Virus record (IMG/VR): IMGVR_UViG_3300035193_000045
Direction: 5' to 3' (one strand)
Length of the DNA stretch: 64,000 bases
Origin: a virus
Both the position numbers and the translations under genes were made by a program. Positions 1,504 to 59,556 of this stretch are shown one piece after another. The notes under the pieces were generated by a model. That model did not search any database. It worked only from the letters and a program-made list of their open reading frames with translations, and was not told where the DNA came from. The first letter of the stretch is position 1. Each line of letters starts with the position of its first letter.

Positions 1504-2928
1504 TTAATAATTATTCTTACCTACATTTTTAAATAAGAAATTCTTATTAGGAGCATAAAGCACAGGAACTCCATAAAGCACTTGGCACCATCGAACCGCT
1601 GTAGCAATAGTTGCTAACGGAATTTTAACCATTGGAGCTAATTGCTTGAAAGAAAGGCTCTCTATATTCTGCTGTAATAACAACGCATTTGTAGTGTCCG
1701 GCAAACTAGTATTACTATCAGTAATTGTCTGCTGTCCAGTACCTTGCGAATTAGCAACCCTTAAGATAAGTTTTTGCGTTCCAGAAGCACCGTTCTTTTT
1801 CGTTCGGTAAACTTCATACCACTCCGTAGCGCCCGCCCCCCCCGTAGTACTAGGGGTAACAGGAATAGGTACATGCTGTGTGGCCGCTATAGAGACCGCA
1901 GTAGGTGATCCATACGCAACCGAAATAGACCGACCATATCTATTACACGCAACCACAGAATAATAATAATCCCCGGCATCATCTGCCGTAAATAACGGCG
2001 CATCTGTTCCAGTAGGAGTAATAGTAGCAATTGCAGGAGTACCAGGAATTTTTGTGGCGTCTCCAATAGCAGCAGCATTTGGTGTCGAGGTATTACCAGT
2101 AAGAAAAGTATTACTTACAAATTGAACGACGCCTGATTCGGAAGTAAACCCAGTAATGTTATTGCCGATAATACCACTATTATCGGTAAAAGTATTATGG
2201 CGCTCTTTTGGGAAAAATGTCTTAGTTAATTCTGACTTAGTCTTATGATTTAAATGGAGATGAGTAGGGAACCCATAAGAAGTCCTGACAGTAGACACTG
2301 CCTCAGATAAAATATCCTCAGTAAGAGGGGCACCTCTTAAATCTAATACGTGATCAGAATCTGCATTGTCCGTAATTAGCTTATTGAAACCATCAAATTG
2401 AACAGCAGATAAAGAAGAATCAGCGTAATAAAGAGACTTTTCCAAAATACGAAGTAAATGCATCGTTCCATGAACTGTTTCATTGGCAATAACATTACCA
2501 TGAGCAGGCCGAACAAGACTCATTACATGAGTCACTGATCGAGTAGTACCCAAAAACTTTACCACTGCGTACTTTCGCGCATAAGTAGAATCATCACTTT
2601 CAGGAAGAGCACCTTCTGAAATAAACCCAGAATCCTCATTGGATCCATAACTCGAAATCTGATTGTGCTCCTCAACGGTATTGTATGCAGGGATTTTAGG
2701 AATAGCTTTCCAAAAAACAATTTCCTTTGCTGTATAGGTAACCGTTTTTAGGGTATTCTCTAAAGACTCAACTCGTAAAGGAAAGCCTTCTCCAGCGGCA
2801 ACAGTAGGAGCCGCAATATCTTGTCCAGCAGTTAAAGCCTTATTTAATTCATCTACTTCTTGTTGCTGAACACTTCCATATCCGTCAATACCATCATAAT
2901 CCGAAAAACTAACCATGTTCTCTAACAT
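1504..2928 (-). CDS. major capsid protein (HK97-fold type)
   Basis: 474 aa; directly follows protease and scaffold genes in canonical order; AAGGAG upstream; overall sequence feel of HK97-like coat proteins. Assignment is by synteny plus resemblance, with no search run. Confidence 0.75.
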   Translation of the reverse strand: MLENMVSFSDYDGIDGYGSVQQQEVDELNKALTAGQDIAAPTVAAGEGFPLRVESLENTLKTVTYTAKEIVFWKAIPKIPAYNTVEEHNQISSYGSNEDSGFISEGALPESDDSTYARKYAVVKFLGTTRSVTHVMSLVRPAHGNVIANETVHGTMHLLRILEKSLYYADSSLSAVQFDGFNKLITDNADSDHVLDLRGAPLTEDILSEAVSTVRTSYGFPTHLHLNHKTKSELTKTFFPKERHNTFTDNSGIIGNNITGFTSESGVVQFVSNTFLTGNTSTPNAAAIGDATKIPGTPAIATITPTGTDAPLFTADDAGDYYYSVVACNRYGRSISVAYGSPTAVSIAATQHVPIPVTPSTTGGAGATEWYEVYRTKKNGASGTQKLILRVANSQGTGQQTITDSNTSLPDTTNALLLQQNIESLSFKQLAPMVKIPLATIATAVRWCQVLYGVPVLYAPNKNFLFKNVGKNNY

Positions 2929-3827: not shown

Positions 3828-4619
3828 TTAATGCAATTTATTTTGCAATTTTAAATCTCGAGCCAACGAGATTATTCTCCCTTTTAATTCAGGAGATATA
3901 TTAGGTAAATGATTAGATAGCCAATCAAATGCTTGACTATCCGTTAAACCCTTTTTTAAATTCTTTTTCTTTTTCTTTTCTAAAGATTCCTGAACAAGAA
4001 CCTGTCCGGCACTTTCCCCAGTTCTATCTCCGTCAACAGAATTACCTGGAATAGGGCTACCCATAGAAAGGGCTTTTGCTAATATATTCAATTGAGTATC
4101 TGTATTAACAGGGGCTTTTGTAATTGCTACTTCTCTAACAATTGCCTTTGTAACAGTAGACTTATTTAATGGATCTCTTCGTTGAATTTTCCCTTCAACC
4201 GAAAAACCCAATCTACGAGGGGTCTTATTTAAAGCGCATGCAAGGTTCCACAATTCATCAGCAGGTGGATAACCTTCAAGCAAATACCCCTCAGCCCAAT
4301 GACAATCTGCTTTTGCAATTTTTCCATCAGGCAATACATCGCCTTTTCGAAAACGCTCGGTTAACTCAGGGTACCCTACTAGATTACATGTATGACTCAC
4401 TTTAGGATTAGAATGATTATCATTAAACCATCCATATTTTACAAATTCAGAAAAGTCTAAACCATTTTGAATAAGAGTTTCTTCTTGTCTATCTGGAGTT
4501 TCTGTAGAAACAACTCCACCTATTCGGCGTTGTTGTCCTTCTGGAGCTGATGCTTTTGTAAAAAAAGAAGCTTCCCCAACAGAAAGTCTAAAATCATTTG
4601 TAGGAATTTCTTGAGGCAT
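3828..4619 (-). CDS. prohead maturation protease (HK97/S78-U35 type)
   Basis: RRIGGVVSTETPDRQEETL...GWFNDNH...GFSVEGK...EVAITKAPVN follows the order of His/Ser motifs in prohead serine proteases; located upstream of scaffold and capsid. Confidence 0.8.
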   Translation of the reverse strand: MPQEIPTNDFRLSVGEASFFTKASAPEGQQRRIGGVVSTETPDRQEETLIQNGLDFSEFVKYGWFNDNHSNPKVSHTCNLVGYPELTERFRKGDVLPDGKIAKADCHWAEGYLLEGYPPADELWNLACALNKTPRRLGFSVEGKIQRRDPLNKSTVTKAIVREVAITKAPVNTDTQLNILAKALSMGSPIPGNSVDGDRTGESAGQVLVQESLEKKKKKNLKKGLTDSQAFDWLSNHLPNISPELKGRIISLARDLKLQNKLH

Positions 4620-13061: not shown

Positions 13062-15432
13062 TTATATTGCCTTTAGTCCATTGTAATCTTCTAGTTACTA
13101 CAAATCTATTAATACCTTTATTCTTTTTTCGTGCTTCTTTCTTAGATTCTTTTACTGTATCAGGAATTACCAATTCTTTAACCGGTATAACGTTTTCACC
13201 AAATTGATAATCTTCTATGTCTCCATAGATACCTTTATTATCTTTTTGCTTCTTACGTTTTTTTAATTCTTCTTTGCCTATATTAAAGATTTCCTTATAC
13301 CGTATAGTTCCTCCACTACCAGGTTTCTTCACTTCTGTACCATAAAAATAATTCAATCCTAATCCTGGACCAGGGGATAAATCATAATTAGATTTATAGA
13401 TATTGCTTTTTAAATCATCCCATAATCTATATAATCTTTTATCAAATTTTTTCTTATTAGCTTCTGTTAAACTATTCAAAAAAGTTTTATCCCAAAAAGA
13501 TTTTACTTTACTATTAAAGTACTTAAAATCAGGAGAATTTCCTACTATTCTTTCAAATATATGATGTTGATTTGTATCTTTAAAATTACGAATAAATCTT
13601 TCCAATTCCCCAGCACCTTCATTCCAAAATGCATCAAATTCGGCAGATTGATTATAATATTCTTTACTATGCTCAGTTACTATGTTATGAACTTTACCAT
13701 ATCCAGCATTAAGATAATGAGATATTTCGTGAATAATAACTTTACTAGTTATTCTAGTGTCTAAATAAGTAGTATCATATGGATTCCTTAAATTAGTTAA
13801 CACTAATACATCTTTCCCATCATTAGTTTTACCAATACCATTGCCTCTAAAAACTCCTTTAGGAGTAATCAATATATGTAAATGTGATAAATTTTTATCA
13901 TTTGTAAATTGATTTGCCTGTATATAAACATTTCCATTTGAATCAAATTGCAAATTATCTTTATTATCCTTTACCCAACTAATTAATTCATCATAAAAAT
14001 TACTAGCTTTATTTCTCATTGATAAATTAGGATCTTTATAAGGTATAGTATGCTCAGCATTTGCCCATTTACCACCTTTAGGTCCTATGAATAAGGCTTT
14101 ATTTATTTCCTCTCTGTCTATGCCTACCCCACACCATCTTTTAAAAGCTTCGACATCCATAGAACTACAATCATAAATAAAATCATCCGGATTATCGTAA
14201 TTCATTCTATAGACATTTAATGCATGTTCTTCATTCCTAAAACCAAGCATACATTTTTGTTCATCATATAATTCATTATCAGGATTCTTTTGATCAATTA
14301 TATAAACTACAGGTGAATCTTTAAATGGTCCAACAAATACATCTAACTCTTCTTCATCCATAGAAGTGGTTCGTTTTACAAAACCATAAGATGCGCCGTA
14401 CATAATGGTTTCCCCTATTGAACCATCTCCATTAATCCATTTACGCTTATCCCCTTTTGGAGTTTCGATAGCAATAGGAATTCCTTGAAAAACTATATTA
14501 GCCTTAGCCTTTAAGGATTTATAAAAAAGATTTTCTTCAATTAAAGCCTTTTCTAATTCTTCAGGCTCTTGATAGATTTCCCCCAATTTACCTCCTGGTA
14601 CTAAATCACCTTCTTCATTAAATCCCCATCCCTTTGGAACACTAATCATGCTGCATACACAATTAGGATGAATTGGACCAACTACAACTTGCCAATCATT
14701 TTGTTTACGTCCTACATTACTCCCATGTTCTTCTAATGTAGATAATTTAAATATCCTAGGCTGCCCATCTGGACCAATATGTAAACGAATACAATGTTTA
14801 CATGCCCCTGGATTAGGTATACGCGCAACATAAACATCTTCTCCATACTTTTTTCTAAGGTAATCTGCTTGCCCTTGCTGTGTTGAATACATTATCTCAG
14901 TTACAGCAATTCGTTTCATATCCCTAGCCCAATCCCCAGTAGACCAACCTAAATCACTTCTAAGCTTTTCGATACTCTCTCTTCTTGCAGCATTTAAAGC
15001 AGTAAGATTTTTTATCTTATCCTCATACGCAATTCGAAATCTTTGATCTGCTTCTATCAAAGTTCTTCCCGTATCTTTTTCAATTACATTTCCTAATCCC
15101 ATACAATATTGTCCCGCATTTACTTGCGCCATACGAACAGCTCTTTGTTGCATTTGCGTTAACGGTTGTGGATTTTTTTGAATATAATCTTCAAATCTAT
15201 TATATGACATCTGTGAAGCTTGAGGACTATTTAATTTACCAAGCACTTGTCCGTATTCATATATTTTCTTAATAAGGTCCTTTGACTCTTTATTCAATAA
15301 CCCTTTATCTCGTAATTCATCAATCACTTCATCAGGTAACGCGTCATGACCAATTGTATTAGCTATAAATGCATTATGATGTAATTCAATTATATCTTGG
15401 ATTTCTAATATTTGATCAGGAGTTAACGGCAT
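13048..15432 (-). CDS. polyvalent head-morphogenesis protein (MuF/SPP1 gp7 domain + PPase-like region + HExxH zincin)
   Basis: CKHCIRLHIGPDGQPRIFKL...IHPNCVCSM is the MuF/gp7 signature. YGFVKRTTSMDEEELDVFVGP resembles inorganic pyrophosphatase. ALFIGPKGGKWANAEHTIPYKD is a shared module. VIIHEISHYLN is an HExxH motif. Confidence 0.75.
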   Translation of the reverse strand: MPLTPDQILEIQDIIELHHNAFIANTIGHDALPDEVIDELRDKGLLNKESKDLIKKIYEYGQVLGKLNSPQASQMSYNRFEDYIQKNPQPLTQMQQRAVRMAQVNAGQYCMGLGNVIEKDTGRTLIEADQRFRIAYEDKIKNLTALNAARRESIEKLRSDLGWSTGDWARDMKRIAVTEIMYSTQQGQADYLRKKYGEDVYVARIPNPGACKHCIRLHIGPDGQPRIFKLSTLEEHGSNVGRKQNDWQVVVGPIHPNCVCSMISVPKGWGFNEEGDLVPGGKLGEIYQEPEELEKALIEENLFYKSLKAKANIVFQGIPIAIETPKGDKRKWINGDGSIGETIMYGASYGFVKRTTSMDEEELDVFVGPFKDSPVVYIIDQKNPDNELYDEQKCMLGFRNEEHALNVYRMNYDNPDDFIYDCSSMDVEAFKRWCGVGIDREEINKALFIGPKGGKWANAEHTIPYKDPNLSMRNKASNFYDELISWVKDNKDNLQFDSNGNVYIQANQFTNDKNLSHLHILITPKGVFRGNGIGKTNDGKDVLVLTNLRNPYDTTYLDTRITSKVIIHEISHYLNAGYGKVHNIVTEHSKEYYNQSAEFDAFWNEGAGELERFIRNFKDTNQHHIFERIVGNSPDFKYFNSKVKSFWDKTFLNSLTEANKKKFDKRLYRLWDDLKSNIYKSNYDLSPGPGLGLNYFYGTEVKKPGSGGTIRYKEIFNIGKEELKKRKKQKDNKGIYGDIEDYQFGENVIPVKELVIPDTVKESKKEARKKNKGINRFVVTRRLQWTKGNINEVP

Positions 15433-15437
15433 AATAA

Positions 15438-15995
15438 TTATCCCTTTAAAATAACTTGTTTATCAAAATGTTTAAACCGATGGGTATCTGTCCACATTCG
15501 TAAAACGCCAAGTCTTAGAAATTTTATAATAGTATCTTGTTTAGGATCAGTAAATAACCCTTTCCGTAATTTCGGTCTAGGTTTTCTAATTATATGAGTT
15601 GAATACTTTTGCCTTGAATATTGCTGATTAAATGGATATTCATTGTAATAAGTATTTACTTGAACTAATCCAGCATAATCAGGAATTTCACTTAAAACCT
15701 TATCCGTATCTAAAATATCTGGAACGGCAAACCATAGGTGTTTAACAAATCTAGCATAATGATTATGCCATTTCTCTTTATCTATTTTCAAATCAGCCAT
15801 AGTTACCTTAATCTCTACTTCATGAAATATCCCAGTTTTAGATAGACATAATAAATCAGGTTCATGATTAAGCCCTAAGCCCCAACCGACATTTGGAACA
15901 ACTGAATACCTTCCAAAGTCAAAAAGATTACTTTTCCTAGTTAATGCATATTGCATTCGAGATTCCGTCCATCGTTGTATAGGAATTCTATTCAT
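15438..15995 (-). CDS. PD-(D/E)xK nuclease-like protein (MmcB-like)
   Basis: EPDLLCLSKTGIFHEVEIKVTMADLKIDKEKWH fits a D...ExK nuclease core; begins MNRIPIQ. Confidence 0.5.
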   Translation of the reverse strand: MNRIPIQRWTESRMQYALTRKSNLFDFGRYSVVPNVGWGLGLNHEPDLLCLSKTGIFHEVEIKVTMADLKIDKEKWHNHYARFVKHLWFAVPDILDTDKVLSEIPDYAGLVQVNTYYNEYPFNQQYSRQKYSTHIIRKPRPKLRKGLFTDPKQDTIIKFLRLGVLRMWTDTHRFKHFDKQVILKG

Positions 15996-16968
15996 TGGGA
16001 TCTATGTCAATAATCAAATTTCCATTAAAATCTTCAAATTCTAATCCACTGCAAAGGAATCCAGCGGCCTTTTTATGTCCTCCCCCACCAAAAGTTTTTG
16101 CTATCTGTGATACATCTATTTCTTTTTCAGTATATAAGGAAATTTTATAAGATTCTTTATGCCTTACAAAAACCATTATTAAATCAATAGATTTATTATA
16201 TAGTACGCTATCTTTAACAATGGATGAATTGCTAAAACCTTTATTTACGCATAGTACATTGTACAGTTCATCTTCAAATTCTAAAACAGCTATAAATCCA
16301 TATGTGTTTGTATATTTATAATTCAAATTACTTTGATATTTTTCAATTATTTCACCATTATGAATTACCTGTTTGATTATACTATCAGAAATCAATGAAT
16401 TATCTAACAAATCCTTCCATTCAAAATTACAAGGTCCTATATCATATAATTTCATCCCATATTGAAAAGGTACTACTTCCTTATCACTATGATCCCATAC
16501 ATCATATCGCCCTAATAATCTAATAGCTTTAGGTATATCTTCATCTGATAGTGGAACAGGTACTCCATCAATATAAGCAATTCCTGTATAAAAATACATA
16601 TAAGTTAATTCACATGCAGCGTAGTTAATGTCTCTAATACCTTGAATATCTTTATTATCGACAATCACACTTGCATGATGATCTATCCAAATTAAATCAA
16701 CTAAATTATTTAATCTTTTCATATCTTCTTTAGATAAAGAAAAATCAACCATTACTACTTTATCATAAGGAACACAATCTTCTTCAGTCATTTCATCTTT
16801 ATCTACAAATGACCAAGGAAAATCATCTCCATAATTCATTCCATATAAAATAACATTTTCATCAATAGAAGCATCTTCTGCATCATAAAAATAATTATAA
16901 ACTATAGCAGCTGAGCAAATACCGTCTAAATCGGCATTGTGATAAATACATAATACTTTTTCACACAT
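15988..16968 (-). CDS. DHH/DHHA1 family phosphoesterase (NrnA/RecJ-like)
   Basis: HNADLDGICSAAI (motif I/II), WIDHHAS (DHH) and FGGGGHKKAAGF (DHHA1 GGGH) in canonical order. Confidence 0.8.
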   Translation of the reverse strand: MCEKVLCIYHNADLDGICSAAIVYNYFYDAEDASIDENVILYGMNYGDDFPWSFVDKDEMTEEDCVPYDKVVMVDFSLSKEDMKRLNNLVDLIWIDHHASVIVDNKDIQGIRDINYAACELTYMYFYTGIAYIDGVPVPLSDEDIPKAIRLLGRYDVWDHSDKEVVPFQYGMKLYDIGPCNFEWKDLLDNSLISDSIIKQVIHNGEIIEKYQSNLNYKYTNTYGFIAVLEFEDELYNVLCVNKGFSNSSIVKDSVLYNKSIDLIMVFVRHKESYKISLYTEKEIDVSQIAKTFGGGGHKKAAGFLCSGLEFEDFNGNLIIDIDPNE

Positions 16969-16970
16969 AA

Positions 16971-17195
16971 CTACTCCCTTTCATCTTCTTCTATTACTAC
17001 ATCTTCTTCAAAAGACTCTATAAATACATCAACTGGTTTGTCATTTTCGCCCCATAAATAAACTTGACCACTTTGAGGCAAGAAATCGAGTAATGCCCCA
17101 ATAGCTGGATCATCAGTAATAGTTCCGGCATCTTCTTTACCATCCGGTAATACTACTGACCAATTAATCTCTAATGTACCACAAACCTTACGCAT
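16971..17195 (-). CDS. hypothetical acidic protein
   Basis: 74 aa ORF tiling with neighbours; no motif recognised. Confidence 0.55.
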   Translation of the reverse strand: MRKVCGTLEINWSVVLPDGKEDAGTITDDPAIGALLDFLPQSGQVYLWGENDKPVDVFIESFEEDVVIEEDERE

Positions 17196-17332
17196 TATTG
17201 TTTACCTTTTCCTTCTTCTAAAATGATTTCATTCCAGGCTTCTCGCAATCCTTCAGGTATAGGATACCATTCAACGTCTAATTCTCCATCTTCATCAATA
17301 TCTTCATTTATTTCTTTATTAAATTCTTCCAT
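17195..17332 (-). CDS. small acidic protein (45 aa, not in the ORF track)
   Basis: Hand translation: MEEFNKEINEDIDEDGELDVEWYPIPEGLREAWNEIILEEGKGKQ. TAATG overlaps at both ends fill the 136-nt gap. Confidence 0.4.
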   Translation of the reverse strand: MEEFNKEINEDIDEDGELDVEWYPIPEGLREAWNEIILEEGKGKQ

Positions 17333-17568
17333 TACCGCGCTCTCCATGTCCTAGGTTGTTCTCCAAGTAATTCAACAACTTCATCCATGTAAAATCCCCC
17401 TCTTTCAGCAATCCTTTCCGCAGACTGGGTATTATTCCATTTTTTATGATATGCTTCCCATACCTTTAAATGTTCTCCCCAAGAAATAAACCCATCAGGT
17501 ATACGTAGTAATTTACTGCCAATAACCCTTACTATTCGTTCTTCATCCATCAACCTACCTCTTTCCAA
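17332..17568 (-). CDS. hypothetical protein
   Basis: 78 aa; overlaps the stop of the giant gene by 19 nt. Confidence 0.55.
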   Translation of the reverse strand: MERGRLMDEERIVRVIGSKLLRIPDGFISWGEHLKVWEAYHKKWNNTQSAERIAERGGFYMDEVVELLGEQPRTWRAR

Positions 17569-20500
17569 AGTTTTTCAGAAGCACCTACATTCTTTGCCCA
17601 TTGCTCAAATACCATTGGATGGATATAACTAGCCTTTGCAATACTAGGAGTATTGTTCAATATTGTAGCTACTTTTTTACTTGTTTCCAACAACGCTTTA
17701 GCTAATAATCGTTTATCCTTTTTACTATCCCCGGTTAATGGAGGAGGAGTGTCAACTTCTTTTAATAATCTTTCAGCTGATTCCGTAGCCTTAATTGTTC
17801 TAAGGTCTTTTACTTTCATTCCTTTAGGAAGTATATTTTTTCCAATATCTAAAGCATTAGGATTAAATATATTACTATCTTCAGTAGCATTCCTTACATA
17901 ATACTCTAAGGCTTTTAATGTTACAGGATTCTGAACCACTGTAACATTCTTCTTACCTTCTTTACCAATAAAGTTTAAAACAGCCATTTTATTATTTAAA
18001 GCAATGTGATCCTTTTTTAAAGTACTTATACCGTAGTGACCATGCTTTTTAACACTTTCCATACTACCTGGACGTAATCCTGTTTCTGCAATAATAGCTA
18101 ATATAGTATGGCCTTGATGATCAATGCTACCAGGTTTTTCCTTAATTAATTTTTCATTCAATGTATTCACAATTTCTTTTTTCTTACTTCTAAATTTATT
18201 AATTCTATCCCATTTTTTCTTAGCATTTATTTCATGAAATTTTGGAGTATACCCACTTTGAACTTTCCCCTTAGTGTCTTTCCAAGTAATAATTGCTTTA
18301 CTATTTATATCACCAGAAAAATCTACTCTTACATCTGAAGCCGGAATAGTGGCTTGTGGTAACTTATCCACTTTTAATTCTTTTAATTTAGCTTGTACTT
18401 TACCAGGCAATTGAGAACCCGGAGGTTCCCTCTTAATAGGTTTATTTTCTACTTCATCTTTATAAGGTATAGTATGCTCAGCATTTGCCCATTTACCACC
18501 TTTAGGTCCTATGAATAAGGCTTTACGTAAATCAGATTCATTGATCGTAAAACCTTTTCTTATTTTAACTATTCCTGGATCTCCTTCTAGTATTGTAGCG
18601 TTGATACCTTGCTCACGTAAATTATTCATAGCTATTTTAGCATCATCTACGTCTATAGAAAAATTAGTTTGGTAGACATCATGGATATCGTCAGAAGCAA
18701 CTTTTTTAAGTTTTATATTCTTAGCGGAAACATAAGCTAAACTAGATTCCGCTTCTTTTACATTTTGCGGTTTTGATGGCCTTCCCCTACCTTGCTTAAC
18801 AGGTTCCTCTTTTATAGCTTCTCGTTTAAATGTAAGAGGTGGCTCTTTAATAGCCACTCGAGTCATTTTGTTCTTAGAACCAGGAGGTCTCCCTCGTTTC
18901 TTCTTTTCAGGCTCTTGAATAACCATTGAAGGAATAGCAACTCTTTTAATGTTTTTTGATCCAGGAGGTCTTCCACGTTTCTTTTTTTCAGGTTCTTGTT
19001 CAATTACTTCCTTAATTGGTTCCCTTATAACAAAAGCTAGTTTTTGTTCTTCTTGTTTAGGAACCTCTATGGGAATAACAGGAACATCGGGTTTATCTTC
19101 TTTAATAGGTAATTCCTTATTTTCTTCTATAGGCGTTTTACCTCCATGAATTTTATTCAATATATCACTGACGGTTAAGGGCTTATTCATCCATGCAATT
19201 TCTTCCTGCGTCAGCTTCTTTCCCTGATTTACTTTTTTAGATAATTCATATTTCCTTTTAATTATCTCCGTAACTGAAGAATCAAATAAATTATTAGAAG
19301 CGGTAACCCAATAAACATTTACGTTATTCTTTTGTCCAATTCTGTGTGCTCTATCCTCTGCTTGGCGCAAATCAGCAGCAGTCCAAGGTAAATCATTAAA
19401 AATAACTTTATCAGCAGCAGTTAAAGTAGCTCCTACAGCCATTGATTGGCGAGTAGTTATAAATACTCGTTTAGGAGAAACAAAATCACCGTTACCATCT
19501 GTTTTTTGAAACTCTTCCTTTACTGCTTCCCTTTTATCATCACTCATTTGTCCATGATGCAATAAGGAAATATTACCTAATTCTTCATGAATCTTTTTAG
19601 CTGCATCAACTGAATCAGTAAATACTATTATTTTTGAATCAGATGAATCTAATATCTCTTTAGCCAAATCAATAGTAGCAGGAACCTTTCCGATCGCTAC
19701 AGCAGCTTTAATTTTAGCAATTTCACCAATATCTTTATTTGCACCATAATCGGGTAAATTAGGTATGTCTTGTTGAATAATAGAAGTAACTTTTTCAGGT
19801 AAATCTTTTAAAACCTCTTCCTTACTCCTCGCAATATAGAAATCCTTCATATCACGCCAAAGTCCGCCAATAGTAGCAAATTTTATTTGATTTTTAGACG
19901 TAAATTTACCAGGTGCAACAACTTCCAACTGAGTAAATAATTCTTCTTTTTTATTTTTAACCGCCGTTCCAGACAATAGAATATGATGCTTTACTAATGC
20001 CGATACCTTTTGAATTGCTTTTGTCTGTTTAGCTTTAGGATTCTTCATCCTATGCGATTCATCAACCACTACTGTATCAAAACCAGCATCCTTTAAATAA
20101 GGATAAAACTTATTCAAAGATTCATAATTAACAGTTACAAGGTTCTTATCTTTAAGGTTTGGAACTCTATTATTTCTTATATCAGAAGATACTAATTCAG
20201 TTCCTTTAAACTGTCCTGGAAAAAACTTATCCGCTTCTTGTAGCCAAGTACGCCTTACTACTTTCGGAACAACTAAAATTGTTTTCTTATTTCCTTTAGC
20301 TAACCAAGCCAAAGTTTCAAGCGTCTTTCCAAGACCCATAGAATCCCCAATCAAAGCATTTCCATTTGTTTTATCTAAAAAATGAACTGCTTCATTTTGA
20401 TAAGGAAATAATGAATATTTACTGTCTAATAATTTCTGTACTTCAGGAATTGGCTTTTGTAATTCAGCTTGGTATCTCGCTTTTTCATTTTGTGCTTCTT

Positions 20501-22115
20501 TTAAGCCTTCTTCATCTATATATAACTTATAATTAGGCAATTGCTTCTTTATCTGTTGCAATGCTTCTTCTACTAAATTCAGTTCATGCGTTTCTCTAGC
20601 CCAATTATTGTCTTTATTTGCATAAAAAATACCAGACAATCCACCAGTTTTATTGGAAAATAAATCATTAAACTCTGAAGAATAGGTAGACCAAAAAGCA
20701 AATTTATCTTTACCTATTTTCTTAAGAACAATTGCATCTTTAATTCTTCTATCTTTAATGCTTTGCAAAGCTTCATCTACAGTAAGGTCCTTTTCATCTT
20801 TTTCAGATACTTTTTGTTTTCGTTCCCCCTTAATTGGATGAACTTTTATACCTATTTCCCCCATATCCTTCCTATAAGATTCAAAATCAAAATCATCTAA
20901 ATATTGTTCTTTAATAAAGTTCTCGCCGTTACTAAACCATACGTTGTATTTTTTATTAATGTCTCGAAACTTGCTAAAAGTTTCTCTATCAACCCTTCCA
21001 TCTACTGGAAGAGTGAGGCTCCCCCAAGTTTTATTGTAATAAGGTTTAATATCCGCTTTATAACCCTTACCTTCTCTTGTATCTGCTAATCCTAATTTAT
21101 GGTATTCTTCAATGCTATAGGCACCAACTATTTGACGTTTATATTTTTGAAGTAATTGCCGCTTTGCATTTACACCAGTTACAGATCTCCATCTGTCCAT
21201 ATCTACATAACTAAATCCAGTGTCGTCTTTTTCACGAGGATTAATTGCTTGATGACTATATAAAGCTTCACCTATTCTATCTAAAATTTGTTCAGCTTCT
21301 TCGTCACTATACCGTTCTTTAGTTTCTGAATAACTATGTACTTCGTCTTTCCAAGGTATAGTGTGTTCTGGATCAGCCCATTTACCTCCACGTGGACCGA
21401 TAAATGGGCCTTTTTGTGCTTTATTTAAAGCTTCATTGTAGTCTTCAATATAGGAATCTGTATCTATATCATAATGAAAATATGATATACCTTCATCTTC
21501 CCCTTTATTTAATCCATCTACTCTAATACCCGTATTGGGTTTAATTTGAATAGCTCGGTCATCCCAAAGTTCAGCCATATGCAGATCTTTTTCGTATACT
21601 ACCGGTAATTCTTCTCCAATATATTTTTTGCACCATTTCTTTATAGCGGTAATAGATGCTCTAAAATCACTAGAATTTGGATTTGCTCTAGCAGTCATAA
21701 TTTTTACATTTTTATTATTGGCAATCCATTCCTTAACTCTATCAACCATTTTAGGAATTGGCTTACCAATAGAAGCAGAGCCTTTATATTCATGGTATTC
21801 CGCTAATGTCCCATCTAAATCAACGCCAATCCAAGAAGGATTGGAACCAAGACTCTTATTTAATTTTCCCTTATCTAATACTTTACTTATATCCGCAAGC
21901 ATCATATTAGTTTGGTCTTTATAACCTATTTCCCATTGCTTTAATACTTCTAATAGAACTGGATCAGTAAACAATTTATCTTTATCATCTATAGCTTTAA
22001 TTAAACGATTCTTTAAATCAAAATCTACTTCCCCAATGTAATCAGCAATAGATTTTACTAAAGAAACTCTTTTAGAAAAAAGTTCTTCCTTATTTGCTTC
22101 TATTTGTATACGCAT
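17550..22115 (-). CDS. giant polyvalent protein: HAD phosphatase-like + SNF2 helicase + AT-hooks + type IB topoisomerase-like domain
   Basis: HAD: GVDLDGTL / MTAR / LWDDRA. SNF2: GDSMGLGKT, VVVDESHRMKN, LLSGTAVKN, QAEDRAHRIGQ. AT-hooks: two KKKRGRPPGSKN plus GRGRPSKP. Topo IB: LNFIGKEGKKNVTVV, VKDLRTIKAT, LNNTPSIAKASYIHP (Tyr codon 17625-17627). Also two FIGP[RK]GGKWA modules. Confidence 0.85.
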   Translation of the reverse strand: MRIQIEANKEELFSKRVSLVKSIADYIGEVDFDLKNRLIKAIDDKDKLFTDPVLLEVLKQWEIGYKDQTNMMLADISKVLDKGKLNKSLGSNPSWIGVDLDGTLAEYHEYKGSASIGKPIPKMVDRVKEWIANNKNVKIMTARANPNSSDFRASITAIKKWCKKYIGEELPVVYEKDLHMAELWDDRAIQIKPNTGIRVDGLNKGEDEGISYFHYDIDTDSYIEDYNEALNKAQKGPFIGPRGGKWADPEHTIPWKDEVHSYSETKERYSDEEAEQILDRIGEALYSHQAINPREKDDTGFSYVDMDRWRSVTGVNAKRQLLQKYKRQIVGAYSIEEYHKLGLADTREGKGYKADIKPYYNKTWGSLTLPVDGRVDRETFSKFRDINKKYNVWFSNGENFIKEQYLDDFDFESYRKDMGEIGIKVHPIKGERKQKVSEKDEKDLTVDEALQSIKDRRIKDAIVLKKIGKDKFAFWSTYSSEFNDLFSNKTGGLSGIFYANKDNNWARETHELNLVEEALQQIKKQLPNYKLYIDEEGLKEAQNEKARYQAELQKPIPEVQKLLDSKYSLFPYQNEAVHFLDKTNGNALIGDSMGLGKTLETLAWLAKGNKKTILVVPKVVRRTWLQEADKFFPGQFKGTELVSSDIRNNRVPNLKDKNLVTVNYESLNKFYPYLKDAGFDTVVVDESHRMKNPKAKQTKAIQKVSALVKHHILLSGTAVKNKKEELFTQLEVVAPGKFTSKNQIKFATIGGLWRDMKDFYIARSKEEVLKDLPEKVTSIIQQDIPNLPDYGANKDIGEIAKIKAAVAIGKVPATIDLAKEILDSSDSKIIVFTDSVDAAKKIHEELGNISLLHHGQMSDDKREAVKEEFQKTDGNGDFVSPKRVFITTRQSMAVGATLTAADKVIFNDLPWTAADLRQAEDRAHRIGQKNNVNVYWVTASNNLFDSSVTEIIKRKYELSKKVNQGKKLTQEEIAWMNKPLTVSDILNKIHGGKTPIEENKELPIKEDKPDVPVIPIEVPKQEEQKLAFVIREPIKEVIEQEPEKKKRGRPPGSKNIKRVAIPSMVIQEPEKKKRGRPPGSKNKMTRVAIKEPPLTFKREAIKEEPVKQGRGRPSKPQNVKEAESSLAYVSAKNIKLKKVASDDIHDVYQTNFSIDVDDAKIAMNNLREQGINATILEGDPGIVKIRKGFTINESDLRKALFIGPKGGKWANAEHTIPYKDEVENKPIKREPPGSQLPGKVQAKLKELKVDKLPQATIPASDVRVDFSGDINSKAIITWKDTKGKVQSGYTPKFHEINAKKKWDRINKFRSKKKEIVNTLNEKLIKEKPGSIDHQGHTILAIIAETGLRPGSMESVKKHGHYGISTLKKDHIALNNKMAVLNFIGKEGKKNVTVVQNPVTLKALEYYVRNATEDSNIFNPNALDIGKNILPKGMKVKDLRTIKATESAERLLKEVDTPPPLTGDSKKDKRLLAKALLETSKKVATILNNTPSIAKASYIHPMVFEQWAKNVGASEKLWKEVG

Positions 22116-22116
22116 T

Positions 22117-22587
22117 TTACTTATGAATTGTTACTGCTTTATCAGTAACTGAAAAAGGTTCATTATACTTGCTTATACCAAACCATGCGGCAAGGGATAG
22201 AATTAAAAGAATAAGTGCTTCAATTAATCTAATTTTAAGATTAGTAGATAATGTAAATTTCTTTTTATTTGGCGGTTTAGAATCAAATAAAGAACCCAAT
22301 TTATTTCCTACTGATTCTTTTTCTTTTCTATCCCAAGCTTTATACAATGGACAAGTATTTTGAGCTAAGCTAATACCCTGCTCTATCAATCCAGGAATCT
22401 CTTTAATCACTGGAAGTACTTCTTGGGCTACGGTTCGTTCTAGTCTTTCAAAATTAACTGATTGCTTTCCAATTTGAATAGATTGTTCAATCACAATTTC
22501 ATTGAACCTAGTAATTTGGATATCCATTTGTTGCGTATAAAGTTGTAATACTTTTTCTATACTCTCAATCTCATCTTTCCTAGCCAT
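22117..22587 (-). CDS. hypothetical protein with C-terminal transmembrane helix
   Basis: LIEALILLILSLAAWFGI lies near the C-terminus; the N-terminal part looks coiled-coil. Confidence 0.55.
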   Translation of the reverse strand: MARKDEIESIEKVLQLYTQQMDIQITRFNEIVIEQSIQIGKQSVNFERLERTVAQEVLPVIKEIPGLIEQGISLAQNTCPLYKAWDRKEKESVGNKLGSLFDSKPPNKKKFTLSTNLKIRLIEALILLILSLAAWFGISKYNEPFSVTDKAVTIHK

Positions 22588-22968
22588 TTATTCCCCCCAA
22601 GCACAATAAAAACCAGATAAAGCTACAGTTAATGCCTTAATACTAAAATTACTAATCAAAGCGTTCATAAAAAAACTAGCTTTTGGGTAAGTAGTGTCTG
22701 TATGGCGTATCAATAAAATAGGAACATTACTGCTATTTATAGTTAGTTCACAATCATTATTAACTACTAATAGAATACCTTTAATTGTAGCAATATCTCC
22801 AAAAGAAAGAACTTCTGTTCCTCCTATATCAATATTAATAGTACCGGAACAATATTTATCATATTCAGAAACAGTAATCTTAGCTAGGTCATTACTTAAA
22901 CCAAAATATAAATCACTTAAATCTGATTCTTTTATAATTCTAGCGTTTACTATATGTTCCAATTTCAT
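22588..22968 (-). CDS. hypothetical protein
   Basis: 126 aa, abuts the next gene with no gap; no motif recognised. Confidence 0.55.
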   Translation of the reverse strand: MKLEHIVNARIIKESDLSDLYFGLSNDLAKITVSEYDKYCSGTINIDIGGTEVLSFGDIATIKGILLVVNNDCELTINSSNVPILLIRHTDTTYPKASFFMNALISNFSIKALTVALSGFYCAWGE

Positions 22969-22970
22969 AA

Positions 22971-23156
22971 TTATTTATCCTTATCTAAAATTCGCAACGG
23001 CTGAAAACCGTTCAATACGTCACATTCATTCGATGGTTTAACAACTGACGGTAATATTCCATGCATAATCTTAATTCTACATTTATAAATAGTTTTAGGT
23101 CTAGCACTTCTTCGCATAAAGGTACAATTACGACAAATATGTTTTATCTCAGACAT
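22971..23156 (-). CDS. small Cys-rich protein
   Basis: Start refined to MSEIKHICRNCTF (GGAGGG 3 nt upstream); the track ORF extends to 23216. Confidence 0.45.
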   Translation of the reverse strand: MSEIKHICRNCTFMRRSARPKTIYKCRIKIMHGILPSVVKPSNECDVLNGFQPLRILDKDK

Positions 23157-23361
23157 TATCCCTCCTATTATGGTAACCTTCTTCCCAATTAAGACACCTA
23201 TTATAAAAAGAATCATTCGTAGTATGTTTAGATGCTTCGTAAATTAATTGATTAGCATCTTTTAACAAAGATTCGTAATAACTAATTACTTCACCAGAAA
23301 TATGTAACCTAGACAATACATCCGCATAACGATCAACAAATTTCTTATCAATAGTACTCAT
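23149..23361 (-). CDS. hypothetical protein
   Basis: 70 aa directly downstream of the portal gene. Confidence 0.5.
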   Translation of the reverse strand: MSTIDKKFVDRYADVLSRLHISGEVISYYESLLKDANQLIYEASKHTTNDSFYNRCLNWEEGYHNRRDNV

Positions 23362-23376
23362 CGCAATTTCCTTATT

Positions 23377-24984
23377 TTACAAAACTACATCCAATATTAA
23401 ACTTTTTTTCACTTCATCATCTTCTTCATTTTGATCAACTAAATCATCCTCAGAATATTTAGACAATAAAGATCTTATATCTTGTTCCCCATTACCCCCT
23501 TTCTCATTATCATCTTGTGTCATTCCATTTTCATTTTGGTCACCTTCTTCTTGTTGCTGCATTGCTTGTGCTTGTTGTTTATTCTGGATATAAACCTGAT
23601 TGAGTATAATGTCTCCTTGGTCATCCGGTAATGGGGGTCTATCTTCTTCAGCCCTTAATTCATTTACAGTAATATAGGTTTGAACACGTTTCTGATTTCT
23701 TGTAGCTACTGCATCTTTTGTTTCTGCATCAAGCCCCATAAACTCAAAAGTAAAATCAGAATTAATAGGCTCTACTAAATGAATAGCAATTAATTCACCT
23801 ATGTCATTCAATAATGGACGTAAACCGCGCTCTTTACTTTCAATAATCTTTTCAGCAGATGAACTTTCAACCAAAGCTCTCGATTGACCGGTATTGCCAT
23901 AATTGAAATTAATCTCTGCTGGATCAGTTGCATATACAGCAGAAGCTTCTTTAATAAGAAAATCCATCCATGCAGAAAACTCCATATCCCTATGTGTCTG
24001 CTGCATATTAATCCATTCAATTCCATCGGTATTAGTTATAGGAGTTTTCCATGCATTATTCACTGAAGAAAGTAAGTTATACCAATGCCTTTTAAATTCA
24101 GCAAATTGCTTAGCATTCGCTGTTCCTTTAAAATTCAAAATACCTTTGGCACTAGAACCTTGTGTAAAAAACTTCTGATTATATTGATGGCCGTACAATA
24201 ACGAAGTAATTGTAGACACCAATAATTCTAATTCACTTACACCATATCCTTGAAGCCTGATATTAGTATTTGGGTGTCTTACACCAAATACCATTTCATA
24301 TTGGGTATATTCATTGATCACTACTCCATCGTATACTTGTACATATCTAATCTCTTTAGTTTTGTCTTCATCATTGAATACGTTCCCATTATCTGCAATA
24401 CGAATAGTAGCTGCGTCTGTTGCGTACCATTCAGCAGGTAAACCTTTTCTATTGGGGACTATTTCAAAACACATTTGATCATATATAAGAGTGTCAAATA
24501 CTAATTTTTTTAGAAATGTTTTAAAACTATCCCTCCCTCTAGGATTATTAGTCACTCCTGTATTTAATAAAATATTATTCATTTGTGCAATGAATTTCTG
24601 TTCTTGTTTTGTGGTATTCTTATCCTTGTCCTTTAATACCACTCTAAACCCCAATGAGAATTTATCTTGTTGTGGAGTTGCAAAAGCCGCTACTTGATTC
24701 ATTCTAAGAAATACAATTGCTTGAACAATTGGAAGTTTACAAAAAATATTCCACAAAGTAATATATGTAATAGAGGAAGGCCGATCCTTATATCCAAATT
24801 GTTCTACTATTGAATAAGGATCAAAGAAAATAGACTTAGGATCATTATCTGCCTTTTGCACTGGATTAGATAATTGCTGTGCTTGAACATTGATTGCTTG
24901 CCGTGACTGCTCAAGTTTAGCTTTTATCAAATCCGTAGCAATAGGCATCATTTCTTGAAAAGTACTAATAATGCCCATAATCAA
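23377..24984 (-). CDS. portal protein
   Basis: 535 aa with an acidic C-terminal tail. The central ...RDMEFSAWMDFLIKEASAVYATDPAEINF... resembles the portal wing/stem region. Lies within the head-assembly neighbourhood. Confidence 0.7.
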   Translation of the reverse strand: MIMGIISTFQEMMPIATDLIKAKLEQSRQAINVQAQQLSNPVQKADNDPKSIFFDPYSIVEQFGYKDRPSSITYITLWNIFCKLPIVQAIVFLRMNQVAAFATPQQDKFSLGFRVVLKDKDKNTTKQEQKFIAQMNNILLNTGVTNNPRGRDSFKTFLKKLVFDTLIYDQMCFEIVPNRKGLPAEWYATDAATIRIADNGNVFNDEDKTKEIRYVQVYDGVVINEYTQYEMVFGVRHPNTNIRLQGYGVSELELLVSTITSLLYGHQYNQKFFTQGSSAKGILNFKGTANAKQFAEFKRHWYNLLSSVNNAWKTPITNTDGIEWINMQQTHRDMEFSAWMDFLIKEASAVYATDPAEINFNYGNTGQSRALVESSSAEKIIESKERGLRPLLNDIGELIAIHLVEPINSDFTFEFMGLDAETKDAVATRNQKRVQTYITVNELRAEEDRPPLPDDQGDIILNQVYIQNKQQAQAMQQQEEGDQNENGMTQDDNEKGGNGEQDIRSLLSKYSEDDLVDQNEEDDEVKKSLILDVVL

Positions 24985-24996
24985 AAATCCTTTATA

Positions 24997-27297
24997 TTAC
25001 ATACGGCCGCAATTAGGACAAACTGTTATTGCTTTACTAAAAGTATTACTGCAATGTCTACACTTATTAACAGTACTTAAAGGAATACCAGATAAAGGAC
25101 GATTCATTAAATGGGCTTTGTAAAAAGATTCGTCTTGCATAGAACGAACAGCCATTTCATCAGATGTCATTCGTACATTCTCAATTGACTTCTGCACAGG
25201 CTCATCTGGTTCAATGTAAACCATATCATTTTTCATTAATTGAGTTTTTCGTAAAGCAACTTCTCTAGCCATATAGTCATGCGCCTGAGTAGAAATGTTA
25301 AGGCTTTTTCTTGCAGTGTTCTCAATAGGCTTCTTATGATCTTTCATATTTTTCTCGTCTACTTCATCATCTTCAGATAACTTCTTTACAGACGGCTTTG
25401 CTACACCTCTATCAAGGGTAGCGCTACCATTACCAGGAATACCAGAAGATTTTCCTTTACCATCTAATGATTGATCTCCTTGTTCTTTACCTTTCCCAAT
25501 AACAGGTAAAGACTCATCCTCAATTGTTGATTTCAAGAAAGTCTCTAAGATTTCAGTTTCCCTCATTCCTTTATTTAAACTTTTAACAAAATCACTCCAT
25601 GAATCTGAAATAGGTTTATGGGTAACAGCGTCATGCTTTACGTCTCTTAATAAATCCCCTTCTTTAAATGACCAATATTCTAAAGTAACATTTTTATCTC
25701 TACCTGGACTACTATGCTTAAATACTCCGCCAAGTTTATGTAAATCATCCATAGAATTTAATTTATTACGATTTAGTTTATGTAATAAATTTCTAATGGG
25801 TTTATAAGCATCTTCATAAATATATCGATAACCCCCTCCCGGTTTAGGTATTCGTTGTTTGTATTTACCACCTATAGGATTACCTTTTTCTAAATCAATT
25901 TCTTCATTTCCTAGTGATTTATTATACGTAGACGAATATTTCTGTTTTAAATATGTTAAAGCCGTCTGCTTATTTTCCGAATTCAAATCTTTACCAGAAT
26001 TTTTAACAGCCATTCCAGCAAGTTTGTTAAAAGCTTTATTCCTATCGTACGTCCCTAATTTTCGTAATTGCACAAGCCATTTCTTTCCGTCAGCTGACCC
26101 TAATGCCCTGTCAATATAACTAGTAATACCTTTTCTATCTTTCTTCCCACCAATTTCATATTTACCATTTTCATAAAAATAAACATAACCTCCTCCCTTT
26201 TTAGGAACTTTTCTAATATACTTTCCGCCTCGGTCTGCTTTAATTAATTCATCATCCGTAATACCTATACAAAACATTGCTTTTTCCATTTCCTTACCTC
26301 CTAAATATTTTCTAGCCCTATTCTGTAAGGCTACTTTTTGTTGTTCCGATAAACCACACTTAGACTGAGGAATGCGGGCAATTGCATTCCGTGTATGTGC
26401 TAAATCAATTTTACCGTCCATTCCTCTATAAGGAAAATGACGCAATGAACGAGGTATTGTCTTACCACTTTCATCTTTCTTTCCCCCTGATTCAATGTAA
26501 AGAAAAGCACTATCCGGTAAATCATTCATATGCGCATTTGACCAAACTGCCTTTTGTAAATTATTATGAAACATATATTTACCAATTGCTTTATTAAAAT
26601 TTTTAGGAGAAATCACCATAGTTATTTTAGACCCATTTTTATTTAATCCATATAATCCATTACTAATTAAATTATTCCAAGAAATATTATCATATTCCAG
26701 TTTATAATTAGAGATTAAAGAATTTGCCACATTAATAAAATCTTTATTACCAGAACTTTGTATAGAATCATAAGACATTCCTGTAATTTTTTTCCATATA
26801 GATAACGATACTTTAGAATTTAGTTCCCTATATCCTTTATCATCAAAATATTTCAACAAAGTGTCCGTTTGCGAACCACTTAAATCTTTAAGAGATTTTT
26901 TAACCCAAACCTCTTTTATAGAACCAAGATGACTTTGTTTGGGAACCTTTTGATTAAATCCTAAATAACTATCACTAATTGCATTAATGGGGTTACCTCT
27001 GTCATCTAATACAAACCTAATATTATATTTCTGGGCAATGTCGATAGGGTCAAAATATTTATTATCTCTGGCATAGTACCTATCATCATCAGTAGTTTCA
27101 ACATAAGCGTATTTTCCATCCCATTTAGATAAACTAAATCCCTTTTTATCCTTAATGGTTGTATCATTAGGCAATTTGTCTAATATAATTTTAGTAGAAA
27201 TACTTTCATTACCTTCTTTCCAAGGTATAGTGTGTTCTGGATCAGCCCATTTACCTCCACGTGGACCGATAAATGGGCCTTTTTGTGCTTTATTCAT
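24997..27297 (-). CDS. large polyvalent/virion-associated protein
   Basis: 766 aa. N-terminal QKGPFIGPRGGKWADPEHTIPWK module, two GGKYxxRxPKxGGGYxYxYE modules, LRHFPY...HTRNAIARIPQ motif and a C-terminal CRHC...CPNC zinc ribbon. Immediately upstream of the portal gene. Confidence 0.6.
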   Translation of the reverse strand: MNKAQKGPFIGPRGGKWADPEHTIPWKEGNESISTKIILDKLPNDTTIKDKKGFSLSKWDGKYAYVETTDDDRYYARDNKYFDPIDIAQKYNIRFVLDDRGNPINAISDSYLGFNQKVPKQSHLGSIKEVWVKKSLKDLSGSQTDTLLKYFDDKGYRELNSKVSLSIWKKITGMSYDSIQSSGNKDFINVANSLISNYKLEYDNISWNNLISNGLYGLNKNGSKITMVISPKNFNKAIGKYMFHNNLQKAVWSNAHMNDLPDSAFLYIESGGKKDESGKTIPRSLRHFPYRGMDGKIDLAHTRNAIARIPQSKCGLSEQQKVALQNRARKYLGGKEMEKAMFCIGITDDELIKADRGGKYIRKVPKKGGGYVYFYENGKYEIGGKKDRKGITSYIDRALGSADGKKWLVQLRKLGTYDRNKAFNKLAGMAVKNSGKDLNSENKQTALTYLKQKYSSTYNKSLGNEEIDLEKGNPIGGKYKQRIPKPGGGYRYIYEDAYKPIRNLLHKLNRNKLNSMDDLHKLGGVFKHSSPGRDKNVTLEYWSFKEGDLLRDVKHDAVTHKPISDSWSDFVKSLNKGMRETEILETFLKSTIEDESLPVIGKGKEQGDQSLDGKGKSSGIPGNGSATLDRGVAKPSVKKLSEDDEVDEKNMKDHKKPIENTARKSLNISTQAHDYMAREVALRKTQLMKNDMVYIEPDEPVQKSIENVRMTSDEMAVRSMQDESFYKAHLMNRPLSGIPLSTVNKCRHCSNTFSKAITVCPNCGRM

Positions 27298-55535: not shown

Positions 55536-55836
55536 TTTTATACAACTTTACATAGTCTTTTGTACGAATTCTTTTACATCTAAAAAACTTTATATTATCA
55601 GTTATAATCATAACCGGCCTATCTTTCCATTCTATGGGAAATTTTGATATTAATTCTTGTACACTATTGTGTGTCATACTAGAAGAAACACTAACAACAA
55701 TAACATTGTCTAATTCTTGTTTAACTATTTGATGCTTTATATTTGTATCAAATGGTATTTCTAATTGCCCTTCGCTTGAAATAGGCTCTACTTGATATAA
55801 GACTGTTTGTTTCTTCTGTATATCTTTTGTCTTCAT
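55528..55836 (-). CDS. hypothetical protein
   Basis: Start refined to MKTKDIQKK (GGAGGA 8 nt upstream); overlaps the sbcC 3' end by 89 nt in another frame. Confidence 0.45.
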   Translation of the reverse strand: MKTKDIQKKQTVLYQVEPISSEGQLEIPFDTNIKHQIVKQELDNVIVVSVSSSMTHNSVQELISKFPIEWKDRPVMIITDNIKFFRCKRIRTKDYVKLYKND

Positions 55837-59551: not shown

Positions 59552-59556
59552 ATTTT

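Follow-up and report, generated by a model that had tools for sequence, protein, structure and literature searches.

The capsid-targeting sequence (CTS) of the phage T4 internal proteins is a weakly conserved stretch of about 10 amino acids (aa) that is strictly N-terminal and is removed by gp21, while the cargo-loading peptides of encapsulins, which dock enzymes inside an HK97-fold shell, are usually C-terminal and present in one copy. At the DNA level, the concerted evolution of intragenomic repeats by gene conversion is familiar, as are the 'boundary sequences' found at the mosaic junctions of lambdoid phages. Polyvalent virion proteins are, like gene conversion, already known; for the phage-type members, packaging and delivery along with the DNA are assumed, as is a need for processing (Iyer, Burroughs, Anand, de Souza and Aravind 2017, J Bacteriol; PMC5512222). 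Here we describe a peptide module that occurs four times, in three proteins (A, B and C) of a head-morphogenesis gene cluster, within 64,000 nucleotides (nt) of viral DNA (IMG/VR record IMGVR_UViG_3300035193_000045; 'the window' below means this whole stretch). The module marks the N-terminal border of enzyme cassettes in all three proteins, and it is common throughout a large group of uncultured phages with homologues of the portal, MuF-like, protease and capsid proteins of the window.

A sequence-only reading of the window had pointed out perfect repeats of 80 and 70 nt set in unrelated flanking sequence, and had suggested a self-comparison. Both repeats are exact (identical at 80 of 80 and 70 of 70 positions; coordinates are given in Table 1), and identity ends sharply, with zero further matching bases on either side of either pair and unrelated sequence beyond. 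Self-comparison placed all four copies in a single repeat family (D1) with 66–68% nt identity between its two subtypes, which we named D-type (…GGKWADPEH…) and N-type (…GGKWANAEH…), and returned no other 100% repeat of comparable length in the 64-kb window. All four copies lie on the minus strand in a common codon phase, inside three open reading frames (ORFs), and a six-frame regular-expression scan together with a profile hidden Markov model (HMM) scan gave exactly these four and no fifth. The distribution described earlier, with both variants in the SNF2 protein (B) and one in each of the other two, agrees with the module positions in C, B and A, while the description of 'three giant proteins' (766, 1521 and 794 aa for C, B and A) is true of B and not of A or C. 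The module is the sole similarity that we found among the three proteins. With the peptides held identical, the chance of every codon matching under the codon usage of the window is about 10^-7.6 for the 80-nt pair and about 10^-6.5 for the 70-nt pair.

The core of the module spans 20–25 aa and follows the consensus L-x-K-[A/G]-G-P-[Y/F]-I-G-P-[R/K]-G-G-K-W-A-D-[P/A]-x-H-T-I-P-W-[K]-E. About 12 core positions are kept in at least 80% of copies, with G, P, G, G, D and H conserved at 96–100%, W at 93%, and A, K, I and the second W at 82–88%. After it comes a K-, G- and P-rich disordered linker, and the family profile shows L/L/K/K/G at low frequency at positions −9 to −5 before it. Modelling with AlphaFold2 (AF2), using a 53-sequence alignment of 44-aa instances, gave predicted local distance difference test (pLDDT) values of 81–89 for the core and low-confidence flanks; the core is predicted to fold as a small beta-hairpin around the P-R-G-G turn. 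A second AF2 model did not pack the module on the cassette that follows (low pLDDT over residues 1–30). A test for internal translation starts found no clear enrichment of Met upstream of internal modules.

A dedicated, near-invariant peptide preceding cassettes is unrecorded in Pfam, in the PDB, in Iyer et al. 2017 as far as its text was searched, and in full-text motif searches. The module matched nothing at E≤10 in Pfam, which holds the families of Iyer et al., and five multi-module proteins were without any Pfam family. Against the PDB, the best sequence match had an E-value of 2.3 and the best Foldseek fold match an E-value of 8.4, and motif strings gave no match in a literature search of a corpus of 8 million full texts. 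Text searches of Iyer et al. 2017 (PMC5512222) brought up no conserved inter-domain peptide.

Comparison between genomes indicated that it is the peptide that is maintained. We surveyed 108 module copies on 58 contigs, 29 of which were multi-copy, and excluded from the means those pairs with at least 56/60 nt identity. Synonymous codon identity was 0.49 within genomes versus 0.45 between genomes of similar GC content, and the copies on most of the 29 multi-copy contigs shared just 40–60% of their synonymous codons, while the module peptide was kept across genomes with GC contents of 0.32–0.67. Since the peptide is kept while synonymous sites are scrambled, we conclude that selection acts on the protein and that nucleotide identity is a sporadic, lineage-specific overlay. 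Genome-specific co-evolution of module variants was also considered and rejected: amino acid identity within genomes (0.74) was not above that between genomes (0.77), and the impression given by P0002, P0012 and P0015 was anecdotal.

The origin of the overlay can be followed in a relative, IMGVR_UViG_3300031369_000001, which was found by an IMG/VR pattern search, was assembled separately and is collinear with the window at 88–92% nt identity. The N-type copies that it carries in B and A match each other perfectly along 73 nt and differ from the window pair at three places within the tract (GAG/GAA, ACT/ACC and AAA/CAA), each difference being common to both paralogues; the codon just upstream is TAT in both copies of the relative and CGT and AAT in the two of the window. 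For the D-type, the two copies of the relative read TTC ATT versus TTT ATC in both window copies, within a 33-nt identical run. The 300 nt flanking the orthologous pairs are 81–96% identical between window and relative, and the paralogues are therefore older than the split of the two phages, yet have changed together since. A third relative (L007) has a 32-nt run common to its paralogues, and two unrelated phages have similar pairs: L038 (GC 0.40) carries its own 69-nt perfect pair with unrelated flanks, and L057 a module pair identical at 56/60 nt.

Because genome-specific states are common to paralogues and the tracts are confined to the homologous patch, these data support homogenisation of same-subtype copies by short-tract gene conversion in this phage lineage, and the earlier suggestion of ongoing conversion draws further support from the fixed differences between genomes and from the 69-nt pair of L038. 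This conversion accounts for the perfect 80-nt and 70-nt identities and their sharp edges. Conversion is not a general property of the family; it is sporadic, found in three lineages and absent from most. It is mechanistically plausible, as the phage encodes RecA and SbcCD genes (Table 1), and this RecA and SbcCD-type system of the phage itself is probably what performs it during replication. Identical runs between the D-type and N-type, judged by eye from the codon table, reach about 10 nt at most, which is probably too short for homologous recombination and would explain why the subtypes stay distinct.

We built a profile from the four window copies and one metagenomic match and searched it against 1.84 billion representative proteins. 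This returned 719 cluster representatives at E≤1e-3, 223 of them at E≤1e-10 (a word-index protein search with the module found one 65-aa protein and so under-samples the motif, compared with 719 by HMM). The best 150 of the 719, which are up to 3135 aa long, contain 349 copies, with two copies in 110 proteins, three in 29, four in 9 and five in 1. Among these copies, 47 lie within 30 aa of the N-terminus and 2 within 30 aa of the C-terminus, and 45 of the 150 proteins (30%) start with the module. The ten clusters whose origin was checked came from metagenomes only (ENA, JGI and Logan) and had uninformative names, and the 7 module matches in 185,579 species genomes were all in metagenome-assembled genomes. 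Cultured phages gave no match in 50,697 phage records to a megablast of 13000–27400 or a tblastn of the 29-aa module, and a tblastn of protein B against the same records found generic helicases only.

The proteins that carry the module have varied domains. A Pfam census of 49 of them found InPase in 9, DUF5661 in 4, Zeta_toxin, LPD1 and Topoisom_I in 2 each, and ddrB-ParB, DarA_C and SNF2 in 1 each; DSP phosphatases and GGDEF domains also occur in module proteins. The DUF5661 domain (…IPGGLADKK…VEMEHT…) is a frequent companion of the module, and on contig L001 it forms a separate gene (1270–1593), which overlaps the stop codon of the gene for a 65-aa protein with the module at its start.

A homologue of the window portal, MuF-like domain, terminase or 126-aa protein, or of the conserved end domains of B and C, was present at 49 of 62 module loci. 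Individual markers were found as follows among the 62: portal 34, MuF-like domain 35, InPase 29, terminase 10, protease 11 and capsid protein 6. Portal matches reached E-values down to 1e-197 outside the two close relatives of the window phage, on contigs with GC contents of 0.40–0.67, and a search seeded with the portal revealed a new contig (L069) with four modules.

Within the carrier proteins, we recognised three recurrent 'anchor' domains, namely the MuF-like N-terminus of A, the first ~90 aa of B (always N-terminal) and the last ~190 aa of C, which includes a zinc ribbon, is always C-terminal and recurs in this position in many module proteins. In MuF-type carriers the first module begins ~10–80 aa after the end of the MuF-like or InPase domain, and in A and B the module lies between Pfam domains. 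The cassettes between anchors and modules vary even among close relatives. The C of the close relative (IMGVR_UViG_3300031369_000001) is without the module of the window and the 220-aa N-terminal cassette (the first 246 aa), and has the module variant YYGPKGGKYRDPQHKIPW further in; the A of L007 is without the module and the HExxH cassette; and P0016, of the B type, has no SNF2 cassette, its junction falling right after module 1. The A of the close relative (1184 aa) carries an extra module and a C-terminal domain resembling ADP-ribosyltransferases (ART-like) that are not in the window. The junction at the end of A has a 7-nt microhomology, TGTAAAT, five codons before the module, and a repeat-mediated deletion at this site was rejected, since the junction is this microhomology, just outside the module, and not the repeats. 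Three mappable indels lie at or beside module borders, one of them resolved at the nucleotide level.

The A of the window ends five codons before the point where the extra module of the relative would start. In the close relative (contig L006+L004; rel.fa 21798–22952), the extra domain of A has an R...STS...ExE pattern, which is typical of ADP-ribosyltransferases, and it is followed by a 70-aa ORF that the window likewise lacks.

The genes for the three carriers form part of a minus-strand head-morphogenesis cluster ordered C, portal, two small ORFs, B, a DHH phosphoesterase, an MmcB-like nuclease and A, followed downstream of A by a head maturation protease, a 273-aa ORF (2990–3811; putative scaffold) and an SU10-like major capsid protein (Table 1). 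A, B and C flank the portal gene, with protease and capsid genes downstream, and are encoded among virion or late genes.

The sequence-only reading had assigned A to the MuF family. This is reasonable by homology to minor head proteins: the N-terminus of A is 28–32% identical, over 88–93% of the query, to stand-alone proteins encoded beside the portal in Bacillus phage SP-10 and to a protein of phage Nachito annotated 'minor capsid protein'. Protein A also contains HPNCVC at aa 255, matching the HPNCxC motif that we take to be typical of MuF. The Pfam model did not follow, as Phage_Mu_F had no match in aa 1–300 of A even at E≤1. The cassette that follows the module in A (13048–14025; aa 470–794) has HEISH at 13717–13731, and the pattern HE[IL][ST]H...SEF[DN]A...EG is common to A, P0038 and P0057. 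This HExxH cassette is possibly a metallopeptidase, judging by its motif and a weak match to WLM (zincin) at E = 0.02; its AF2 model (pLDDT 69, from a 3-sequence alignment) had no Foldseek match at E≤0.001. So few module proteins contain it that it cannot be the universal partner of the module.

In protein B, the topoisomerase IB domain occupies aa 1293–1515 (Pfam Topoisom_I). Three AT-hooks, KKKRGRPPGSKN twice and GRGRPSKP, lie between the SNF2 helicase and the second module (18777–18977; aa 1047–1113), in a part of B that is partly a tandem duplication and where the close relative has 80 aa extra. Protein C matched no family in Pfam or PHROG. It contains two copies of a second short motif, GGKYIRKVPKKGGGYVYFY and GGKYKQRIPKPGGGYRYIY (26173–26229 and 25816–25872; aa 357–375 and 476–494), which is found once more in an upstream 230-aa ORF (27696–28388), as PRGGSYYRRVPKKSGNGYNYYY, and also in metagenomic P0049 and P0126. 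Since the C of the close relative has the module variant where the C of the window has the first copy of this second motif, the two motifs may be homologous or interchangeable.

Table 1. Module copies, carrier proteins and associated genes in the window.
Feature	Coordinates	Strand	Description
D-type module copy in protein C	27215..27294	-	N-terminus, aa 2-28, NKAQKGPFIGPRGGKWADPEHTIPWK; 80-nt identity with 21346-21425; module HMM E = 1e-18
D-type module copy in protein B	21346..21425	-	aa 231-257, between HAD/PNKP-like N-terminal region and SNF2 cassette
N-type module copy in protein B	18456..18525	-	aa 1197-1220, KALFIGPKGGKWANAEHTIPYKD, between AT-hook linker and topoisomerase IB domain; 70-nt identity with 14032-14101
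N-type module copy in protein A	14032..14101	-	aa 444-467, directly after InPase (aa 310-434), before HEISH-motif cassette
Protein C, 766 aa	24997..27297	-	Variable N-terminal cassettes; conserved ~190-aa C-terminal domain with zinc ribbon; immediately upstream of portal gene
Portal protein	23377..24984	-	Pfam Phage_portal 1.2e-24
Protein B, 1521 aa, polyvalent	17550..22115	-	Conserved N-terminal 90 aa, HAD/PNKP-like region (weak match), module, SNF2 and Helicase_C, three AT-hooks, module, topoisomerase IB
Protein A, 794 aa	13048..15432	-	MuF-like N-terminal 300 aa, InPase (2.3e-30), module, HExxH-motif cassette
Head maturation (prohead) protease	3828..4619	-	phrog_1028 1.9e-30; weak Peptidase_S78 match; candidate reader or cutter of the module
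Major capsid protein, SU10-like	1504..2928	-	Pfam SU10_MCP 2.6e-09
SbcC/Rad50-like, SbcD/Mre11-like and RecA-like genes	55748..60890	-	Pfam AAA_23/SMC_N/SbcC_Walker_B, Metallophos, RecA 1.6e-28

Taken as a whole, we lean, with some reserve, towards a module that acts at the protein level, is overlaid by sporadic gene conversion, and serves as a common address or processing tag. The tag is the weakest step of this explanation. The module peptide would be a common address and/or processing signal, read by a conserved component of head assembly such as the prohead protease, the scaffold or capsid interior, or the portal, and the tagged cassette would enter the procapsid and/or be released from its carrier, either ahead of ejection or after it. 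The shared docking or encapsidation signal that the sequence-only reading had put forward is plausible, and the head gene cluster, the MuF-like carrier and the prohead protease form a context that fits it. We infer a tag because the module is restricted to one head lineage, because phages of very different GC content show the same sequence requirement, because the module stands at the N-terminus of many proteins without a recognisable anchor domain, and because the window encodes a prohead protease and polyvalent proteins are expected to need processing.

Several points weigh against a tag that is read by the head. Two contigs of more distant relatives, which the search seeded with the portal also brought up, have a portal related to that of the window: L070 (51% identical; it also encodes a MuF protein of 987 aa and another protein of 1220 aa) and L072 (38% identical). 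They have no module within 10 kb on either side of the portal gene. We therefore rejected the module as an obligate feature of this head type, as both contigs have a related portal, MuF-like protein and protease, and regard it as an innovation inside one phage group and not a requirement of the head type. The survey found no genome-specific co-variation of the module, and the module HMM found no copy in the capsid and scaffold genes of the window. MuF-type carriers should need no extra encapsidation tag, yet carry modules, and some twenty near-invariant residues far exceed the needs of known prohead-protease sites. Finally, a simple docking tag would not lead one to expect so few C-terminal copies, and their scarcity suggests a role that is tied to whatever follows the module.

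The alternative that survives best, although we consider it unlikely, is that the module purely separates and has no targeting role, being a cleavage site for the prohead protease or the HExxH peptidase, or an autonomous 2A-like or self-cleaving peptide. The module always precedes a cassette, is almost never C-terminal and sits at domain junctions, as such an element would; a prohead protease is encoded, the HE[IL][ST]H cassette follows the module in A, P0038 and P0057, and Iyer et al. 2017 argue that polyvalent proteins must be processed (PMC5512222). Against this, cutting would free nothing useful in the 30% of the best 150 proteins that start with the module, the HExxH cassette occurs in few module proteins and has an unconfirmed fold, the capsid and scaffold genes are without the module, and the module is without an NPGP-type motif. 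Nor do we know of any bacterial 2A activity.

It is distinctly improbable, in our view, that the module acts after ejection by binding a conserved host macromolecule (DNA, a ribosome, a chaperone or a protease) and so localising or activating effector cassettes. In its favour, phages with GC contents of 0.32–0.67 impose one and the same sequence on the module and show no genome-specific co-variation, P-R-G-G-K bears a loose resemblance to an AT-hook core (R-G-R-P), and the cassettes are DNA or nucleotide enzymes. Against it, the module is confined to one phage group with a shared head module and has not spread across phages of the same hosts. The module was rejected as an AT-hook because Pfam AT_hook matches the true AT-hooks of B and not the module. 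It was likewise rejected as a beta-clamp-binding motif (QL[SD]LF), as the clamp-like QLSLF preamble is confined to one high-GC subgroup.

We give still less weight to a passive structural joint, a self-contained hairpin and linker that would tolerate any neighbour, that would spread by making domain fusions viable and whose DNA homology would incidentally promote cassette exchange. A mere spacer would not keep ~12 positions at above 90% identity across hundreds of lineages, nor would it sit at the extreme N-terminus of 45 proteins, even though the autonomous hairpin of the AF2 models, with disordered flanks and no packing on the next domain, and the cassette indels at module borders are what a joint would show. 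A bolder proposal, made by analogy and with a low chance of being correct, sees in the module an autonomous 'separator-address' peptide, the counterpart in bacterial viruses of 2A-like or self-cleaving elements. The peptide would both tag the cassette for the procapsid and split the ORF. No cassette-specific protease site would then be needed, and the constant presence of something downstream, the near-invariance irrespective of neighbours and the placement at N-termini and junctions would all be explained.

The last two alternatives concern the repeats as DNA and are effectively excluded. The first, that they are a DNA or RNA element (a regulatory site, an RNA structure or a small mobile palindromic element) with the peptide as a by-product, is very improbable. 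It draws on the perfect nt identity with sharp borders and on an mRNA hairpin of the D-type (−22 kcal/mol, z = −2.6), but the N-type is unstructured (z = 0.0) and in most genomes synonymous sites vary freely while the peptide stays; nor is there Rfam-type evidence for such an element, although no search of Rfam was made. The earlier suggestion of selection at the DNA or RNA level is therefore not supported, with synonymous identity at 49% versus 45% and the hairpin limited to the D-type. This hairpin arises because, in the D-type core (27236–27271 and 21367–21402), the G-P-F codons (GGC CCA TTT) are the exact reverse complement of the K-W-A codons (AAA TGG GCC-like); the centre of the core, CCACGTGG, is palindromic, and neither the N-type nor most other genomes have the hairpin. 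An assembly artefact (collapsed or chimeric reads), suggested by perfect identity alone, is of negligible probability given an independently assembled close relative with the four-site architecture, lineage-specific substitutions and the module at the same positions in B and A, L007 with the same positions in B, intact reading frames for both, and orthologues (P0063, P0024 and P0016) in other metagenomes.

Other features of the window were noted alongside. The phage has a genome of ~100 kb with a GC content of 0.32 and nearly all genes on one strand. A replication and recombination block (55748–63989) encodes SbcC/Rad50-like, SbcD/Mre11-like and RecA-like proteins, a 463-aa protein resembling single-stranded DNA-binding proteins (SSB-like) and DNA polymerase A, and elsewhere there are a clamp-like protein (51415–52431), a large terminase (48642–50570) and a sigma factor (5573–6358). 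A 92-nt direct repeat (97% identical; 29129–29220 and 29765–29856) flanks an ORF resembling helix-turn-helix (HTH) repressors (29225–29785); each copy contains a palindrome of the AGGTATTAA.GTACTTAATTATACCT type, a 48-nt tandem duplication lies beside it (28963–29058), and related AGGTATTTAAATACCT-like palindromes occur at 7274, 38889 and 42611. These palindromes and repeats resemble operator, promoter or terminator sites present in several copies. Two pairs of direct repeats (10312–10394/47747–47829 and 10578–10624/47988–48034), 72–75% identical, ~37.4 kb apart and apparently intergenic (…TTAGTGCAAACGG…), may represent regulatory regions present twice.

Polyvalent virion proteins are regarded as the first weapons that a phage delivers. 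A near-invariant peptide that precedes hundreds of different cassettes offers a concrete handle on how their many domains are loaded into the head and then separated, since it can be fused, deleted or used as bait, and by defining cassette borders it helps to annotate thousands of giant proteins from metagenomes. If it is indeed a loading tag, it could serve to package foreign proteins into phage capsids. At the DNA level, the window provides a neat, compact case of gene conversion on a ~70-nt tract in otherwise unrelated genes of a lytic-type phage.

Compared with the known systems, the repeats resemble other cases of concerted evolution and the lambdoid boundary sequences in that paralogues within a genome are closer than orthologues, identity does not reach beyond the homologous patch and module junctions are where the repeats are found; they differ in that the homologous patch is a strongly selected coding motif and conversion is sporadic. 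The likeness to viral 2A 'ribosome-skipping' peptides is a positional analogy only: both are ~20 aa long, lie between polyprotein units and always have something downstream, but the module is without the D(V/I)ExNPGP motif, and 2A activity is, to our knowledge, known only on eukaryotic ribosomes. As with encapsulin cargo peptides, a short, Gly-rich, conserved peptide is found on diverse enzymes, here in a phage with an SU10-like capsid protein; there is no sequence similarity to the encapsulin peptides, and the module is rarely C-terminal and occurs in multiple copies.

The module is a short peptide common to otherwise unrelated proteins of one virus, as a cargo peptide would be. It shares with the CTS of the T4 internal proteins and the N-terminal packaging signals of the P1 Dar proteins its presence on unrelated proteins, its often N-terminal position and a prohead protease encoded by the same phage. 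It differs from the T4 CTS in being twice as long, near-invariant across very different phages and present in up to 5 copies per protein. The carriers resemble the polyvalent proteins in being large multi-domain proteins encoded beside head genes. A and B each combine at least two unrelated effector or enzymatic domains in one polypeptide, and both the virion or late-gene location and the domain vocabulary (InPase, SNF2, Zeta toxin, GNAT, ddrB-ParB, DarA, LPD1 and MuF-type) are those of that class. Where Iyer et al. 2017 (PMC5512222) assign processing to an MPTase domain, the proteins described here have a near-invariant module of 20–25 aa standing before their cassettes.

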